Shown here: positions 23,214-29,607 of the stretch, one piece after another
Layout: the number at the start of each line of letters is the position of its first letter
Position numbering within the stretch: the first letter of the stretch is position 1
Assembly: GCA_963790305.1 (NCBI GenBank)
Contig: CAWBOC010000005.1
Coordinates: 256,001 to 320,000 of the forward strand
Reading direction: 5' to 3'
DNA from: an uncultured Gemmatimonadaceae bacterium
GTDB lineage: Bacteria; Gemmatimonadota; Gemmatimonadetes; Gemmatimonadales; Gemmatimonadaceae
DNA length: 64,000 nucleotides
Notes under the pieces: generated by a model
Told to the model about the DNA's origin: nothing
Seen by the model: only the letters and a program-made list of their open reading frames with translations
Database searches by the model: none
Position numbers and translations under genes: made by a program

Positions 23214-23311
23214 GATTATTCAATCCCGCGCACGGCTGTTCAAGACAGAGAACGCCTCCGGGTCAATGTTCCGAACCCATCGGATTCGGTTCCCCACTCC
23301 CGGAGGCCCCC

Positions 23312-23905
23312 ATGCGAAGCGTTCCTCGTGCTTTTGCCGCGTTCGTGGTCATTCCCATCGTGACCGCTGTTGGCTGTGAGAGCCCGACGGTGTCGGAGCC
23401 GTTGGCGGCCGCCGGAGCCAGGCTTTCCGCAGCCGAGTCGAACGGCGTCGTCCTCAGCTCCAGTGGCGGCGGACATTACTTCCTTCAAAGCGCGTTCAAT
23501 GTTCAGTTTGCCTACACCGCGAAGCGACAGGTGGACGGTACCGTCCAGGGCGAATTCCACGAGTCGTTGCTGCTCGAGGGTGAGACCGTCGCCTTTCGCG
23601 GCAATGTGATCTGCATGGCCGTGGATCCGGTGAATCACCGGGCGTGGATCGGCGCGGTGATCACGGAAAACACGTCGACTCACCCCGCGTTCCAGGAGTG
23701 GTATCACCAGCCGGGCGAGGACGTCTGGTTCCGCGTGGTCGACTACGGCGAGGGAAGCGCGGCGCCGCCGGACCGTAAGACCTTCATGGGGTTCGAGAAT
23801 ACCCCCGGAATCCCGACCTCGGAGGTGTACTGCCAGCTCCAGATCTGGCCCGCCGACGATGCACGCACATGGCCGGTGACGGAGGGGAATGTTCAAGTCA
23901 AATGA
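23312..23905 (+). CDS. Hypothetical lipoprotein
   Basis: Lipobox AVGC; GGAGG RBS; divergent from AraC. Confidence 0.7.
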   Translation: MRSVPRAFAAFVVIPIVTAVGCESPTVSEPLAAAGARLSAAESNGVVLSSSGGGHYFLQSAFNVQFAYTAKRQVDGTVQGEFHESLLLEGETVAFRGNVICMAVDPVNHRAWIGAVITENTSTHPAFQEWYHQPGEDVWFRVVDYGEGSAAPPDRKTFMGFENTPGIPTSEVYCQLQIWPADDARTWPVTEGNVQVK

Positions 23906-23994
23906 GGTGCTCGAGGTGCTCAATGTGCTCGAGGTGCTCAAGGGGAAAGCCGTTCCCTCGAGCACCTCGAGCACATTGAGCACCTCGAGCACCT
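23904..23994. repeat. (GAGGTGCTC)4 tandem-nonamer inverted repeat
   Basis: Four 9-mers and their complement fill the gap between two convergent stop codons. Confidence 0.88.
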
Positions 23995-24482
23995 TAGTCG
24001 ACGAACGCCCACAACAACTCCTGGCTCTTCCGATCCATCGCCTTCGGTGCAGCAAGCAAGTACAGATCGCCTCCGACATCACGAATGAGCAGGCCGCCCA
24101 TCGGCAGCACGCGCGGCCAGTCATCCAGGTGCGTCTGAAAGGATCGCGGCCCGTGTTTGGTCTCGACCTTCCACTGTCGGATCTCCACCTCCTCCTCGAT
24201 CGACACGACGCGCGTCACCTGCAGCACGAACCCCGCCTCGGCGAGCGCATGTTCGATCGCGGAGCGCGACTCCTCGCCGAGTGTCGCAGGGTCTTCGACC
24301 AACGCGACTTCCGTGTCCTCTTCGTCGCGCAGCGAGAGGTGTCGGTGCGGCTCGGACCACGGAAAGCACTGACGCAACCGTACCGGCACCGCGACGCCCT
24401 CGACGATGGCGAATAACCTCCCGTCGCCGGCGCCTTTTAGGATGAGCTCGGTTTCGCCTTCCAGCTCTAACGATTGAGCCAT
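23994..24482 (-). CDS. DUF1854 domain protein
   Basis: CFPWSEP..HLSL, WKVETKHGPRSF, LLIRDVGGDLY; downstream of ABC exporter. Confidence 0.8.
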   Translation of the reverse strand: MAQSLELEGETELILKGAGDGRLFAIVEGVAVPVRLRQCFPWSEPHRHLSLRDEEDTEVALVEDPATLGEESRSAIEHALAEAGFVLQVTRVVSIEEEVEIRQWKVETKHGPRSFQTHLDDWPRVLPMGGLLIRDVGGDLYLLAAPKAMDRKSQELLWAFVD

Positions 24483-24503
24483 GGTGAGTCCCTCCTTGGT
24501 GAC

Positions 24504-24571
24504 GAATTCGGAATGCGGAATGCGGATTCAAGTCATCAATCACCAACTTCCGCATTCCGAATTCCGCATTC
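24504..24571. repeat. (GAATGCG)n tandem-heptamer inverted repeat
   Basis: GAATTCGGAATGCGGAATGCGGA ... TCCGCATTCCGAATTCCGCATTC between co-directional genes. Confidence 0.8.
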
Positions 24572-26824
24572 TTATTGAAGCTGCAGCTGCATTTCGTACA
24601 ACCGCCGATAGATCCCGTTAGGCCGAGCCAGCAGCTCCCGGTGCGTTCCCGACTCGGCCAGCCGGCCCTCCTCGATCACGAACAATCGCGACGCGCGGCG
24701 CAGGGTCGACAGCCGGTGCGCGATCGCGAAGACCGTGCGACCGGCGATGAGCCGCTCGAGCGCCTCCTGAATCTCCCGCTCCGTTTCCGTATCGACGCTG
24801 CTCGTCGCCTCGTCGAGGATCAGGATCCGCGGGTCGTGCAGAATCGCCCGCGCAATCGAAATGCGCTGACGCTCCCCGCCCGAGAGCGTGTGTCCACGCT
24901 CACCCACCACCGTGTCGTAGCCCTGCCCCAGCTTGCAGATGAAGTCGTGCGCGTTGGCCGCCTTCGCCGCCGCCACGACCGCGCTCAGCGACGCCGTCTG
25001 CATCCCATAGCGGATGTTCTCCAGCACCGTGCCGTGAAACAGATACGGATCCTGAAGCACCATCCCGAGCTGCTGGCGATAGTGCCCCGTATCGAGCTGG
25101 CGAATGTCCACGCCGTCGACGCGAACCGTTCCGCCGGTGGCGTCGTAGAAGCGCGCCACCAGATTCACCACCGTCGACTTGCCACCACCCGACGGACCCA
25201 CCAGCCCGATCAACTCTCCTGCGCGTACGTCGAAGCTGATCCCGCGCAGGATCTGCCGCACTCCGTCATACGCGAACGTCACGTTCTCGAACGTCACGCG
25301 CCCGCGCACCGGCACCAGACGCACCGGCTCCGCCACGTCACGCACTTCCGGCTCGCTGTCCAGCACCTCGAACACGCGGTGCGCCGATGACGTCGCCCGA
25401 TTGATCGTGCGCGCCATCTGACCGATGATCTCGATCGGACCGACGAACATCGTCGTGTACAGCAGAAACGACACGAACACCCCCGCCGACAATGGCGAGC
25501 CTTCGCCGAGCAATCGAGGCATCGCGAAGATCCACACCATGACCGTCGTCGAGTGCACCGCGAGCATCAGCAACGGCCAGAACGTCGTCCACATCTTGTG
25601 GATCTCGTTCGCCTCATCGGTGCAGTCCTCGTTGCGCACGCTGAAACGCTCGATCTCGCGCGACTCCTGGTTGAACGCCTTTACGACGCGAATGCCCGGA
25701 ATCGTGTCCGACAGCACGTCGGTGACGCGCGACCATTTCCGCCAGGCGCGAATGAATCGCGAGTTGAGCGATTCACCGTGCCGGTAGATCATCCAGCAGA
25801 ACAGCGGCACCGGAAGCGTCATCACCAGCCCCAGCCGCCAGTCGAGCGAGAGCAGGACGACGCCCAGCCCGAGCAGCATCACCAGCGACAGTGACACATC
25901 CACCACTCCGAACGCCACGAAGTCCCAGAGCCGGTCGGTGTCCGATGTCACGCGCGTGATCAGGCTTCCCGTCTTCTTCCGCGAGAAGAAGGACAGGCTC
26001 AGGTGCTGAATGTGCTCGTACAGCTCGGCACGCAGGTCGCGCGCGACCCACTCACCGATCACCGACATCAAGCGCAGCCGCACGTGCGCCGCGATCTGCC
26101 GCAGCACGTAGAGCCCCGCCATCGCGCCGACGGCGATCCACGCGATCGTCGCCGCCGCGCCACGCGCCATCGTGCCTTCGTTCGCCTTGCGCACGACGTC
26201 GTCGATCAGATAGCCCGCCAGATACGGCGGCACGAGGCTCGCCAGCGTCACGATCGCCGCGGCCGTGAGGCCGAGCGTGAGCTCGCGGCGATAGCGCGTG
26301 AGATACCGCAGCAAGCGCAGGATGACCGCTGACTGACGGCCGGCCACCAGCGCCTGCGCGTCACGCACCGGGCGCGCGACCGCGTCCGCGTACACGCGGT
26401 CCGCATCGGTCGGTTCCACCGCGCGACCTTCCAGCGCCTCGTCCAGCACGAAGCGAATGTTCTCGAACGCGCCGCGCTGCCGCTGGGTGTACCGCACGAC
26501 CGCCAAAGGCGGATCGTCAGGCACACCGAGCAGGAGCAACGCGTTCGCGCTGAGCCCGGGCGATTCCTGCACCGCCTGTATGCGCGCGCGCTCGACCGAG
26601 TGCACGTTCCACGCGCCCTCTCCGGCCGGACGCGCCAGAGCGATGTGCCGGGGGCCTAACGCAAGCCACGACTCGTGCAGTCGCAGCCCGTGGTCGAGGT
26701 CGGCAAGGGCGTAGAGCTGAACCGGCTGATTTCCCCACTCGCGCTCGATGCGCGCGCGAAGCTCGGTCGGGAGGCGAGCTGGCTGGCCGATGTATCGGCT
26801 GATGATCTCTTGATCCTGATTCAT
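24572..26824 (-). CDS. ABC exporter, fused permease/ATP-binding protein with extra N-terminal domain
   Basis: Walker A GPSGGGKST, LSGGERQR, ILILDEATS, AHRLST; TM domain; about 150-aa N-terminal extension. Confidence 0.92.
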   Translation of the reverse strand: MNQDQEIISRYIGQPARLPTELRARIEREWGNQPVQLYALADLDHGLRLHESWLALGPRHIALARPAGEGAWNVHSVERARIQAVQESPGLSANALLLLGVPDDPPLAVVRYTQRQRGAFENIRFVLDEALEGRAVEPTDADRVYADAVARPVRDAQALVAGRQSAVILRLLRYLTRYRRELTLGLTAAAIVTLASLVPPYLAGYLIDDVVRKANEGTMARGAAATIAWIAVGAMAGLYVLRQIAAHVRLRLMSVIGEWVARDLRAELYEHIQHLSLSFFSRKKTGSLITRVTSDTDRLWDFVAFGVVDVSLSLVMLLGLGVVLLSLDWRLGLVMTLPVPLFCWMIYRHGESLNSRFIRAWRKWSRVTDVLSDTIPGIRVVKAFNQESREIERFSVRNEDCTDEANEIHKMWTTFWPLLMLAVHSTTVMVWIFAMPRLLGEGSPLSAGVFVSFLLYTTMFVGPIEIIGQMARTINRATSSAHRVFEVLDSEPEVRDVAEPVRLVPVRGRVTFENVTFAYDGVRQILRGISFDVRAGELIGLVGPSGGGKSTVVNLVARFYDATGGTVRVDGVDIRQLDTGHYRQQLGMVLQDPYLFHGTVLENIRYGMQTASLSAVVAAAKAANAHDFICKLGQGYDTVVGERGHTLSGGERQRISIARAILHDPRILILDEATSSVDTETEREIQEALERLIAGRTVFAIAHRLSTLRRASRLFVIEEGRLAESGTHRELLARPNGIYRRLYEMQLQLQ

Positions 26825-26854
26825 GTTCGTGATCCGCGCTCACAGTTAGGCAGC

Positions 26855-26893
26855 AAAAAGGCCTTTCAGGTCTATGGCAGCACCCGAAAGGCC
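26855..26893 (-). terminator. Intrinsic terminator/attenuator in the ABC leader
   Basis: Minus strand GGCCTTTCGGGT-gctgccatag-ACCTGAAAGGCC-TTTTT, about 30 nt before the ABC ATG. Confidence 0.8.
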
Positions 26894-26919
26894 GGATCAC
26901 GACATTGAATCCTGGTCTT

Positions 26920-27048
26920 CTAGGGTGCTCGGCCCCCGGCGGAGTCACCGCCAAAAACCCACGTTCCAGGGCGCACTTCGCCCATCAAGGCGAAGACGCG
27001 CGGTCCGGAGACGCGAATGAGAGTGATAACTCGGAGGCTTTCTATCAT
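26920..27048 (-). CDS. Putative leader peptide, 42 aa, ending RAP-stop
   Basis: MIESLRVITLIRVSGPRVFALMGEVRPGTWVFGGDSAGGRAP*, between promoter and terminator. Confidence 0.55.
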   Translation of the reverse strand: MIESLRVITLIRVSGPRVFALMGEVRPGTWVFGGDSAGGRAP

Positions 27049-27092
27049 TTCAGGATTGGGTTCCCCTTGTGGGAGGTGCTGCCGTTGAGCCC

Positions 27093-27121
27093 AAGATAGG
27101 ATCGGAAACCGAGGAGGGCAA
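27093..27121 (-). promoter_or_regulatory. Putative sigma70 promoter of the leader-ABC operon
   Basis: TTGCCC-N17-TATCTT on the minus strand. Confidence 0.6.
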
Positions 27122-27207
27122 GATCCCCGCCCGGTCCGCCTCACAAGTAGGTACGAACGGGATCTGCGTCAGGATTCACGTTCCGGGTTTCCATTGGCCG
27201 GCATCGA

Positions 27208-29607
27208 TTACGGCCAAGGCAGCGGGATAACCCTGAACCGGGACCGTGCCTCCGGATTATCCTCTCCGGCGAAAAAGCGGTTGATGTCACGGACCGCCGC
27301 GGCCCGATGAGCCCGGTCGGCAGGCGAGCCGGTACTCATCGTCGAAAGCCGGTTCTTCAGGAGATCGAGGTGCATCGCCGACACCGACCGCACCTCGGCC
27401 AACGCCTGCCGGTCGCCGGCACGATCGAGCAGCGTGTTGAGCACCACCTGTTGCACCGCGCGTCGGAGCGCCTGGTGACCACCGTTGCTCGACGGAGTCG
27501 CACCCCACGTGCGGGTCACGATCGTTCGAATCACTTCGTCGAGGGACGGATTCGCCGCATCTCTCGCGTTGAACAACACGAGTCGTGCAGCCCGCTCGCG
27601 CTCGAGGATCCCTTCGACCACTTCCGTTGCCAGCCCACCGGCAAGGGAGACCTGGTCGAACGACGTCCCGCCGGCCGAGCCGATCCACTCGATCGACGCG
27701 TCGCCGCCCGCGGGCACCGGTGGAATGAGCGCCATCACACGCGCGGGTACAGCAAGCTTCGCCGGCTCGAGCTCATCCAGCGCCATCGCGAGTGCGCGCC
27801 GCTGCTGCGCGGGAGGCGTTACGCTCGTCGGCGTCTGACTGTCACCGCGTACCGCGTAGGTGAAGTCCATGCCGCCGATGTATTTGACCAGCCCCTCCAG
27901 CGAATACCGATGATGCAAATAGACGTGCGCGAATCGCATGTTGAGCAGGTACATTGGCTCGCCCGGCTTGATGGCGCGCTCGTCGAACTTCTCGATGAGA
28001 ACGCGGCGAACCGCTGCGGTCCGCTCGACCGCGTCGAACGCACTGGCGCCCTCCACCCACCGCGTTGCCTCGGGGATCGATCCCTCGGCGCCGGCATGCT
28101 GGTCGGCAACGAACCGCAATCCACGCCCGAGTCCCTCCGTCACGATGCGCTGGAGTCCGGCTTTCTCAGCATCCGCGTTCGGATACCACGTGTAGCCGTA
28201 ACGGATGGCGAGCGAATCCCATCCGCCGGCGAAAGGTGCGTAGGCGCGAGAGAGATCGGGCTGACCGTTGGCGCCCAGCGTGATGATCGGCACCGGATAG
28301 TCCATCACGGACGCGCGCCCCTGCGATGACGAAATGAAGTTGTGCGAGAGGCCCAGGGTGTGGCCGATCTCGTGAGCGACATGCTGTCGCCGGCGGGCCA
28401 TCGCGAACTCTTCCGCCGGCATGTTCAGCCCGTTAGGTCCAGCCGCGGGGAGAAGCCCAGCGTAGATGTTGTAATCGATCAACGATCGCCACGAATCCAT
28501 GCGGACGACCGTCCGCACGATCTCGCCGGTTCGCGGGTCGGCGAACGATGGACCGACGGAGGGTCCGGGCCCGCTGCGGTGCACCCAGTAAATGAGGTTG
28601 TACCGCGCATCCATTGGGTCGGCGCCAGCCGGCAGGTCGCGAACCTGAAAGGCGTTTCGCCAACCCGCCGCCTGGAGCACGGTGTTCCACCAGTTGCCGC
28701 CGTCGCGAAAGGCCGTGCGATACGGTTCGGGGATGGCGGGATCGAGGTAGTAGATGATGGGCGCCACCGGCTCGGTGGGTTCCCCACGTGCGTACGCAGC
28801 GGGATCCTTGGGAACGAGCCGCCACCGGTTGATGAATCCCGCGCGGTAGGTGCCCTCGAAGCTCTGCCCGAAGTCGTTGAATTGCGTGGCGAAGAATCCC
28901 GATCGTGGATCGGCCGCGCGCGGCGTGAATCCCTGAGGCGCGGGGAGCTCCACCAGCGAGTGATGGATCTCCATTGTCGCCGACGATGGATCGGGAACGT
29001 GCCGGCGCACGGCGGGTCCGGGGTTCTCGATTGCGAAGGTGAGCACCGCGTGGATTTCCGTATTCGTCGGGAACGCCTTCGTGCGCGAGGCGTCGATCCA
29101 GCTACGACTCGCGTCGACGCGCGCGCTCCCCTGCTGCGCGCGTCGCAGGCTCTCTGCGATTCCGTACGTGTCGGTGAGAAAGAGCCCCGTGGCGTCGACG
29201 AGCAGGGTGCCGTTGGTCTCCGACTCGATTGGAAACGAAGCGATCACCGACGTTGGATACGCCTCAGCTGCCGCGCGCTGGCCCGCGGCATCGGCGCCCT
29301 GCGCACGAACGCTCCAGTTGTCGCGCACGAGAAGAACGCGTTTCCCCTGCCGCTCGAGGCGCACGAGAGCACTGCCGCCGGTTTGGCCGCGGTCCAGCCC
29401 CAGCGCGTTCGCTCCGAATCCGGTCGCGAGGACGCTCTGGTGCAGCATGTCTCGATTCAGCCGGGTAGGCGCGATCTCGAGCAGAACCTTGTTTCGATCG
29501 GCATCGACGCGCACTCCGATGAATTGCGCGAGGCCAACGGTTGGAGCACCGAGTGAGATCGTCAGAGCGGCGACTGCTCTGAGCAAGAAGCGATCGTTCC
29601 TTCGCAT
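27208..29607 (-). CDS. Zinc-dependent metalloprotease (metzincin; DUF5117/DUF4953 EcxA-like)
   Basis: HEIGHTLGLSHN, Met-turn SVMDY, DPRTGEI; signal peptide. Confidence 0.88.
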   Translation of the reverse strand: MRRNDRFLLRAVAALTISLGAPTVGLAQFIGVRVDADRNKVLLEIAPTRLNRDMLHQSVLATGFGANALGLDRGQTGGSALVRLERQGKRVLLVRDNWSVRAQGADAAGQRAAAEAYPTSVIASFPIESETNGTLLVDATGLFLTDTYGIAESLRRAQQGSARVDASRSWIDASRTKAFPTNTEIHAVLTFAIENPGPAVRRHVPDPSSATMEIHHSLVELPAPQGFTPRAADPRSGFFATQFNDFGQSFEGTYRAGFINRWRLVPKDPAAYARGEPTEPVAPIIYYLDPAIPEPYRTAFRDGGNWWNTVLQAAGWRNAFQVRDLPAGADPMDARYNLIYWVHRSGPGPSVGPSFADPRTGEIVRTVVRMDSWRSLIDYNIYAGLLPAAGPNGLNMPAEEFAMARRRQHVAHEIGHTLGLSHNFISSSQGRASVMDYPVPIITLGANGQPDLSRAYAPFAGGWDSLAIRYGYTWYPNADAEKAGLQRIVTEGLGRGLRFVADQHAGAEGSIPEATRWVEGASAFDAVERTAAVRRVLIEKFDERAIKPGEPMYLLNMRFAHVYLHHRYSLEGLVKYIGGMDFTYAVRGDSQTPTSVTPPAQQRRALAMALDELEPAKLAVPARVMALIPPVPAGGDASIEWIGSAGGTSFDQVSLAGGLATEVVEGILERERAARLVLFNARDAANPSLDEVIRTIVTRTWGATPSSNGGHQALRRAVQQVVLNTLLDRAGDRQALAEVRSVSAMHLDLLKNRLSTMSTGSPADRAHRAAAVRDINRFFAGEDNPEARSRFRVIPLPWP

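Follow-up and report, generated by a model that had tools for sequence, protein, structure and literature searches.

The window, by which we mean the whole 64,000-nucleotide stretch analysed here (an uncultured Gemmatimonadaceae bacterium, GenBank assembly GCA_963790305.1, contig CAWBOC010000005.1, positions 256,001 to 320,000), carries on its minus strand an operon for an ATP-binding cassette (ABC) exporter and a DUF1854 protein, preceded by a leader with a short upstream open reading frame (uORF). The exporter gene (24572..26824) encodes a protein of 750 aa with Pfam ABC_membrane and ABC_tran domains, and the DUF1854 gene (24482-23994; PF08909, E 2.2e-33) starts ~90 nt after it. An original prediction, made from the letters of the window alone, had read the leader as an attenuator placed before this operon, and had listed a promoter, a segment near the 5′ end, a pair of complementary 7-mers, the uORF, a terminator and a complement that would occlude the exporter start. 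Each of these elements was found again at the same position on the minus strand, and comparison with related genomes now supports a conserved leader-peptide attenuator; the direction in which a stalled ribosome would act, as argued below, is probably the reverse of the one first proposed.

All leader features lie on the minus strand. A sigma-70-type promoter read in the sequence spans 27093..27121, with a −35 hexamer at 27121-27116 and, after a 17-nt spacer, a −10 hexamer at 27098-27093. In the 5′ untranslated region (UTR), a 9-nt segment (27083-27075) has a perfect complement at 26884-26876, at the top of the terminator 5′ arm and in the loop. A 7-mer just before the uORF start, segment A (27057-27051), is complementary to segment D (26914-26908), and the uORF itself (27048-26920) comprises 42 codons and an amber stop, with the C-terminus G-G-R-A-P. 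Region 2 (26929-26908) takes in seven bases at the end of the uORF, then the stop codon and 12 bases more; it is the 5′ strand of a predicted alternative hairpin, whose 3′ strand, region 3 (26879..26898), overlaps the 5′ strand of a start-hiding helix and the entire 5′ arm of the intrinsic terminator. The terminator (26893-26855) has a 12-bp stem, its hairpin occupying 26893-26860 and being followed by five U (26859-26855). It is enclosed by the start-hiding helix, in which segment E (26894..26902) pairs with segment H (26827..26835), the latter ending 3 nt before the exporter start codon; extended to a 10-mer, 26902-26893 is complementary to 26836-26827, three bases short of the ATG at 26824. 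The leader as a whole, 281 nt long, has a folding z score of −4.63.

Conservation of this arrangement was assessed first in independently sampled loci. Among 61 related genomes, the leader was present at 15/15 orthologous loci that had a full-length or N-terminal orthologue of the exporter together with upstream DNA, the window’s own locus being excluded. An orthologue of the exporter occurred in 36 of 301 sampled genomes of the phylum (6/69 in family f1, 16/125 in f2 and 13/47 in f7), a tally that includes genome G015, whose DNA was left out of the leader comparison. Several single-contig genomes of f7 and one of f1 are among the carriers of the operon. All 30 further upstream regions obtained from this sample showed a hairpin and U tract just before the exporter start, plus a uORF, and in 29 of them the uORF ended in Pro-stop. 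In total, 45 of 45 independently sampled orthologous loci carry the leader with a short open reading frame (ORF), and given these 45 loci the arrangement is far beyond chance. A second, biased sample came from a search with a DNA pattern that spans segment E and a portion of the terminator arm, matched by at least 120 stretches among ~185,000 species genomes. At least 66 of the 120 listed stretches passed a filter for an ORF ending in Pro-stop; this is a lower bound, because a true leader (L062) failed the filter. Among the 80 titled stretches listed, 36 passed, all of them (36/36) from Gemmatimonadota, including one from Longimicrobiales, and the pattern matches from other phyla among those titled stretches came without the leader’s other features. 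Wherever the DNA was long enough, an orthologue of the exporter lay downstream of the match. On this sequence sampling, the leader appears to be restricted to part of the phylum Gemmatimonadota.

Within the encoded peptide, conservation is highest at the ending, R-A-P-stop, the element whose conservation the original prediction had proposed to check. In a tally of 90 distinct peptides, 18 to 59 residues long (median 42.5), the last residue is Pro in 87, and two of the others have a single residue added after A-P. RAP forms the C-terminal triplet in 55, GAP in 23, RTP in three and EAP in two; HAP, RMP, KSP, AEP, the extended APS and APD, and ADT (L167) were seen once each. Amber serves as the stop in 88, ochre in two and opal in none, so that only codons read by release factor 1 are used, although opal is the commonest stop of the window’s long ORFs (17/25). 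The ending can be summarized as (G/R/K)-(G/R/K)-(R/G)-A-P followed by amber. No family-wide run of regulatory codons was found, Gly runs being present in one clade and Arg/Lys runs in another, and no hydrophobic N-terminal stretch was visible when the printed peptides were inspected by eye, no predictor having been run. The uORF matches no Pfam family, and seven unnamed predicted proteins match it among 5.8 billion.

Several features argue for translation of this frame. In 55 of 70 leaders, the first ATG past the predicted transcription start opens a frame that runs to the conserved stop, and in one clade the frame is preserved by a pair of indels (+28/−10). The terminal Pro is encoded by three of its four codons in the tally of 90, and by the fourth in L176 (read by eye); the Arg at position −3 is drawn from both codon families; and in family f7 the R-A-P ending is spelled with other synonymous codons.

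Structural statistics were taken from a MAFFT alignment of 74 leaders. The terminator hairpin of the window folds at −24.6 kcal/mol (z −4.45), and none of 200 shuffled sequences folds as well; across the alignment, pairing holds in 99.3% of cells in the stem, one pair alternating between U-A (39 leaders) and C-G (34). The U tract is weaker in one clade. In the helix formed by segments E and H, 93-97% of cells are paired, and one position reads U-A in 24 leaders, C-G in 21, U-G in 12 and G-C in three. The covariation score of the whole structure is 0.182, compared with 0.141 ± 0.005 in shuffled alignments, of which 0/500 reach it. The covariation proposed as a check on the helices is thus present for the terminator and the start-occluding helix. 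Segment H stays beside the exporter start even where 30-45 nt have been inserted after the terminator. These spacer insertions, seen in L060, L094, L124 and L125 and in L088 and L119, are of two kinds, a GC-rich palindrome and an A/T-rich run of short direct repeats.

When the stretch that begins eight bases ahead of the stop and runs slightly beyond the top of the terminator 5′ arm is folded in isolation, a common minimum free energy hairpin is obtained in 74/74 leaders. In this alternative hairpin, the top of the terminator arm is bound by the final uORF bases, and sequence past the stop binds the remainder of the arm as well as segment E; the 5′ strand extends 12-16 bases beyond the stop. 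Averaging −23.1 kcal/mol, it is about as stable as the terminator (−23.8 kcal/mol), with z −2.97 over the 74 leaders. The models predict a hairpin that is mutually exclusive with both the terminator and the start-hiding helix. In nascent folds, before the terminator 3′ arm exists, the 5′ arm pairs with the stop-codon region in 50/69 leaders and with the 5′ UTR in 16/69. At five loci of one f7 genus, the third base of the Ala codon and its partner in the terminator arm have changed together from A-U to G-C, with a helix of 5-8 bp retained. The Ala and Pro codons normally used in the ending are not the common ones (9.6% of the window’s Ala codons and 28% of its Pro codons, respectively), yet each occurs in 68/72 leaders, and all the variants seen retain pairing through G-U.

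On the basis of these features, we hold with moderate confidence that the leader is a ribosome-mediated transcription attenuator combined with a translational lock on the ABC exporter/DUF1854 operon, in which a ribosome at the uORF stop corresponds to the OFF state; the arrest, its polarity and its timing are what we infer from the layout of the conserved parts. A ribosome covers ~12-15 nt upstream and ~15-16 nt downstream of the first base of its P site, and a Pro codon ahead of a stop slows termination. On leader RNA made from the conserved promoter, the first frame to be translated would be the uORF, ~42 codons ending in Pro-amber. With the last Pro codon occupying the P site and the stop the A site, the ribosome would reach ~26910 and cover nearly all of region 2, while leaving free ~17 nt ahead of the terminator stem (26893) and ~8 nt ahead of segment E. 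Parked there, a ribosome would remove the alternative hairpin, allowing the terminator and the start-hiding helix to form, and the operon would be OFF. Stalling should favour termination because the 5′ strand of the universal competitor of the terminator lies beneath the ribosome at the stop. For this reason, the polarity first proposed, that a stall relieves termination, is reversed in the model presented here. Consistent with the reversal, masking the bases that a ribosome at the stop would cover raised the mean equilibrium probability of the terminator from 0.85 to 0.93, and the terminator was regained in five of the eight leaders that were otherwise without it.

If no ribosome is present when the terminator 5′ arm emerges, the alternative hairpin would form first, giving read-through, a free exporter start and the ON state. 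The ribosome could be missing because the uORF is untranslated, because the lead ribosome is late or blocked upstream, or because it has been released early. The Pro-amber ending, usually R-A-P, may slow peptide release and so prolong parking. No conserved upstream segment able to hold region 2, a ‘region 1’, was found in the nascent folds; with no such partner, a ribosome that is released would leave the antiterminator strand free, which offers a rationale for an ending that slows release. Candidate signals include general translation stress, ribosome-targeting antibiotics and a modulator of the arrest. Translation inhibitors, considered as possible inducers in the original prediction, would also induce under the revised polarity.

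Several observations weigh against this account. The terminator wins at equilibrium in every condition modelled, so the ON state depends on a kinetic argument. In the window itself, the nascent partner of the terminator arm is predicted to be the 5′ UTR segment (0.79) rather than the stop-codon region (0.05), and that segment (27083-27075) would not be masked by a parked ribosome. The pairing of the stop-codon region with the terminator arm, 95.8% complete in families f1 and f2, has no pair changed on both sides there; covariation is lacking because both strands are invariant. The covariation in support of the alternative hairpin comes from one f7 genus and hence represents few independent events. 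Since the 74-leader set was built with the pattern over segment E and the terminator arm, conservation of those parts within that set is by construction.

Evidence that the frame is coding is likewise open to objection. Frame 0 is open in 74/74 leaders, but the other two frames are also open, over 32 codons, in 61/74 and 46/74. Entropy at the three codon positions is 1.07/1.15/1.05 in a mixed set of 42-codon uORFs, with no periodicity, and 0.38/0.47/0.57 in a 13-member clade, a mild excess at the third position only. Statistical support for coding is thus modest, and the Gly, Arg and Lys residues at positions −4 and −5 could equally be explained by a purine-rich RNA motif. The uORF of L167 has no terminal Pro, and in one f7 genus (L169-L174 and L179) a 47-codon uORF ends in A-E-P plus ochre and is accompanied by a weaker closing helix. 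Leaders of this genus also have an extra small hairpin between the stop and the terminator, and a much stronger terminator, the two hairpins together reaching about −40 kcal/mol.

The opposite polarity, as first proposed, holds that a stall at R-A-P-stop turns the operon ON, the 5′ UTR segment being freed to pair with the terminator arm and loop while segment D is kept off segment A. We now regard this as unlikely, although it draws on the same features of the window that trouble the reversed polarity: the 5′ segment is the favoured nascent partner there and stays uncovered by a parked ribosome. Its match to the terminator arm and loop extends over 10 bp in the window and its three closest relatives (L001-L004), yet only over 6-9 bp in some other clades, and as a family antiterminator the segment therefore fared poorly. 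Leaders’ own UTR-loop pairs beat swapped ones in the full set, where 0/2000 permutations were as good; after thinning to 20 cluster representatives, 424/5000 were as good, and UTR-loop pairing was rejected as a family-wide feature on this result. The stop-codon region is moreover the nascent partner in 50 of the 69 leaders folded, and masking it raises, rather than lowers, the predicted probability of the terminator. Most known stop-codon arrest peptides do activate the downstream gene, TnaC and SpeFL among them, and so does MsrDL in the available text of PMC10314930; obstruction of the stem as in msrDL is, however, impossible here because the ribosome ends ~17 nt before the stem.

The second of the proposed helices, between segments A and D, has at least 6 contiguous bp in ~17/38 clusters, with sequences that differ by clade. 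An alignment-free swap test on the 38 clusters was borderline (488/10000), and the MAFFT alignment, poor in that region, has only 32-54% of cells paired. We therefore treat the pairing of the 5′ segment and the A:D helix as probable clade-level additions to the switch and not as part of its core. Duplexes linking the 5′ UTR to sequence past the stop have a mean z of −1.18, with 19/66 leaders below −2, a hint, though not a decisive one, of nested long-range pairing.

The arrest itself might do the sensing, with the dwell time at Pro-amber tuned by a small molecule or by the condition of the release machinery, and longer arrest meaning repression. TnaC, SpeFL and the fungal arginine attenuator peptide are precedents for arrest tuned at the ending. 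Pointing the same way, an internal (A/G)-P motif and an N-terminal M-I recur across clades with varying codons, and the stop is always of the release-factor-1 type, although opal is the commonest stop of the window’s long ORFs; the stop-codon bias could, however, be accounted for equally by RNA pairing, most of the peptide is fast-evolving, and neither a ligand nor a binding pocket can be inferred. We judge a sensor of this kind to be quite unlikely. A specific version, a termination-arrest sensor of inverted polarity in which a small molecule linked to the exporter’s substrate, possibly an Arg-rich polymer or its breakdown products, shortens or lengthens the release-factor-1-dependent hold at Pro-amber of a peptide of ~42 residues, and so sets whether the stop-codon region can form the antiterminator, seems to us equally doubtful. 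The sensor reading in general draws on the homology of the two operon proteins to the NCBIfam ‘cyanophycin metabolism-associated’ pair NF052233/NF052234, of which they are, by their scores, homologues rather than equivalogs: the exporter scores 640.6 bits against NF052233 (cut-off 880) and the DUF1854 protein 71.6 bits against NF052234 (cut-off 150). In two beta-proteobacteria, DUF1854, an ABC transporter and two cyanophycin-synthetase-like genes were found to be co-fit, and export of an amino-acid polymer was proposed for the module, according to the available text of bioRxiv 10.1101/072470. Module homologues are thus linked to genes for cyanophycin-like Arg/Asp polymers, and the window’s genome has cphA-like genes; these, however, lie ~525 kb from the ABC/DUF1854 operon. 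Were this inverted-polarity sensor to exist, it would set two precedents: the first repression through an intrinsic terminator by the stall of an arrest peptide, and the first description of a cis-regulator for the ABC/DUF1854 exporter module.

The cyanophycin-synthetase-like matches of this genome (G000 contig C5:806419-809506; L182 and L183) fall in three or four adjacent open frames, which cover model positions 2-266, 268-330 and 329-859 plus a second N-terminal piece; the gene could be frameshifted or split, or the assembly could be at fault.

It is very unlikely, in our view, that the leader is an untranslated structured RNA, such as a riboswitch or a protein-binding leader, with an open frame that is incidental in GC-rich DNA. 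The frequent openness of the other two frames and the near-invariance of the last codons at the nucleotide level would fit such an RNA, as would a 15-nt block inside the uORF that is conserved as nucleotides across two reading frames. The start codon, however, keeps a constant spacing from the promoter and, in 55 of 70 leaders, is in frame; frame-restoring indels occur, the f7 leaders rewrite R-A-P synonymously with compensation on the partner strand, and Pro is encoded by all four of its codons (the fourth by eye, in L176). No Rfam family matches the leader, a result which also bears on its novelty, since a match to a described family would have removed it: an E-value scan of 26000-28000 gave three matches, all with E 1.5 or worse, far below the gathering scores, and none inside 26824-27121.

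Two further stretches of the uORF are conserved at the level of bases. The 15-nt block (26983-26969) is shared by families f1, f2 and f7 despite being read in two frames, giving peptides of a V-V-R-P-G or a G-R-I-A-S type according to clade; it lies ~15 to 50 nt from the stop and could form a 5-bp hairpin with a 5-nt loop, 95.6% of cells being paired. The bases at and just before the uORF start (27046-27053) are conserved in both main classes, and the start codon is nearly always followed by A-U (hence M-I) and overlaps an out-of-frame opal triplet.

Least probable of all is that the uORF encodes a functional peptide, a substrate or partner of the exporter, with a leaky terminator setting the ratio of peptide to transporter in the manner of bacteriocin operons: a small gene does lie directly before an ABC exporter with an extra N-terminal domain, and Gly-Gly pairs occur near the C-terminus, yet neither feature expected of a precursor of a bacteriocin or a ribosomally synthesized and post-translationally modified peptide was found, the exporter having no peptidase C39 or other processing domain (Pfam and NCBIfam gave only ABC_membrane, ABC_tran and weak AAA-type matches) and the peptide no conserved core, being variable apart from its last residues, while the frame is almost never called as a gene, belongs to no family, and has its last codons and stop embedded in an RNA switch that also conceals the transporter start.

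To return to the attenuator that we favour, most leaders have a similar promoter 33-73 nt ahead of the uORF start, and a purpose-made promoter pattern matched 70/74 leaders. A simple promoter and terminator scan of 26500-27500 returned no promoter and no terminator. This blank result is not counter-evidence, because the scan applies a strict hexamer rule that excludes this promoter and permits only terminator loops of 3-8 nt. In soil metatranscriptomes, short contigs from four RNA runs of four studies, 88-99% alike, cover 26699-27180 in pieces, and some span from the terminator loop into the exporter gene; such contigs reveal no ends, strand or level, and DNA carry-over is possible. One contig from a relative (run X15; 27039-27180) extends ~60 nt upstream of the predicted −35 box, which points to read-in from the neighbouring Met-zincin gene or to DNA in the RNA library.

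That Met-zincin gene, the upstream neighbour, ends at 27208, and an AraC-family gene lies downstream on the same strand. The exporter has an N-terminal extension of ~165 aa beyond ABC_membrane and ABC_tran, for which a protein Atlas search with residues 1-170 returned only unnamed clusters (top score 0.84). Two minus-strand ORFs, 24121-24555 (144 aa) and 23240-24124 (294 aa), lie over or after the DUF1854 gene; neither is matched in Pfam or NCBIfam. The overlapping ORF at 24555-24121 was considered as the DUF1854 gene and rejected, the PF08909 match falling on 24482-23994; it is probably not a gene, because DUF1854 uses another frame of the same DNA.

In its general design, the leader resembles the trp- and his-type attenuators and the bmrB-bmrCD leader of Bacillus subtilis, which combine a leader ORF with mutually exclusive hairpins, the antiterminator’s 5′ strand being hidden when a ribosome stands at the leader stop. 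The features of the attenuator class are found here too, namely a conserved first ORF, an intrinsic terminator and a predicted exclusive alternative hairpin that overlaps the ORF, and a ribosome at the stop would likewise mask the antiterminator strand. The regulatory codon run that characterizes amino-acid biosynthetic attenuators is absent, as is a conserved region 1, and the leader differs further in its arrest-like Pro-amber ending and in the second helix that hides the start of the structural gene.

Arrest peptides provide a second point of comparison. TnaC and SpeFL, which sense tryptophan and ornithine, block the access of Rho at sites of Rho-dependent termination. The leader is like these and like CruR in that an arrest-type uORF C-terminus would govern downstream transcription, and unlike them in that its terminator is intrinsic and no sensor motif is known. 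CruR (DUF2946), a RAPP uORF of Bordetella, likewise acts by blocking Rho and senses copper (PMC9426467, available text). By analogy, the nearest described device is the msrDL-msrD pair of a streptococcal macrolide-resistance ABC-F gene; in the available text of PMC10314930, a drug-dependent stall at the msrDL stop codon obstructs a Rho-independent terminator, so that stalling induces, and the system needs a macrolide and uses a peptide of 6 residues. Here, in contrast, the footprint would cover the antiterminator strand and end ~17 nt short of the terminator stem, so that a stall should repress; the peptide has ~42 residues, the target is a membrane exporter, and no drug dependence is known.

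The uDF_NAP-stop, uA_NSP-stop and RAPP-like (RQH) peptides are encoded ahead of secA, secDF or yidC, have localisation signals at the N-terminus and open a stem that hides the Shine-Dalgarno sequence, as far as the available text of PMC10987492 describes them. The present peptide shares with them, within that description, an x-A-P or x-S-P followed by a stop, or an R-A-P on the P-site tRNA, ahead of the gene for an export machine. It differs from the RAPP-like and SecM-type peptides in that the fourth position, Pro or Gly in that class, is a stop (Pro-stop in 87/90), in that its target is the ABC/DUF1854 operon and a terminator is involved, and in that neither an N-terminal signal, judging the peptides by eye, nor a sec or yidC gene was found. 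From the Pro-amber ending and the N-A-P-stop precedents in the available text of PMC10987492, membership in the stop-codon arrest peptides may be inferred by analogy.

In conclusion, we describe a conserved leader of the ABC/DUF1854 operon in Gemmatimonadota, which are abundant soil bacteria and for which a single literature search on leader-peptide attenuation found nothing. Searches on that topic, on DUF1854 and on cyanophycin with ABC transport and export, the last judged by titles and the opening lines of abstracts, yielded no description of this leader, in keeping with the original prediction’s statement that no described regulation of the module was known to it. The family adds ~90 distinct natural variants to the few Pro-stop peptides. 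Should the polarity proposed here be correct, an arrest-type ending would serve to keep an operon off, by means of a ribosome parked on the antiterminator, in a design intermediate between trp-type attenuators and arrest switches of the SecM and MsrDL type. The leader also provides a handle on when the ABC/DUF1854 module, known only from fitness data, is expressed.

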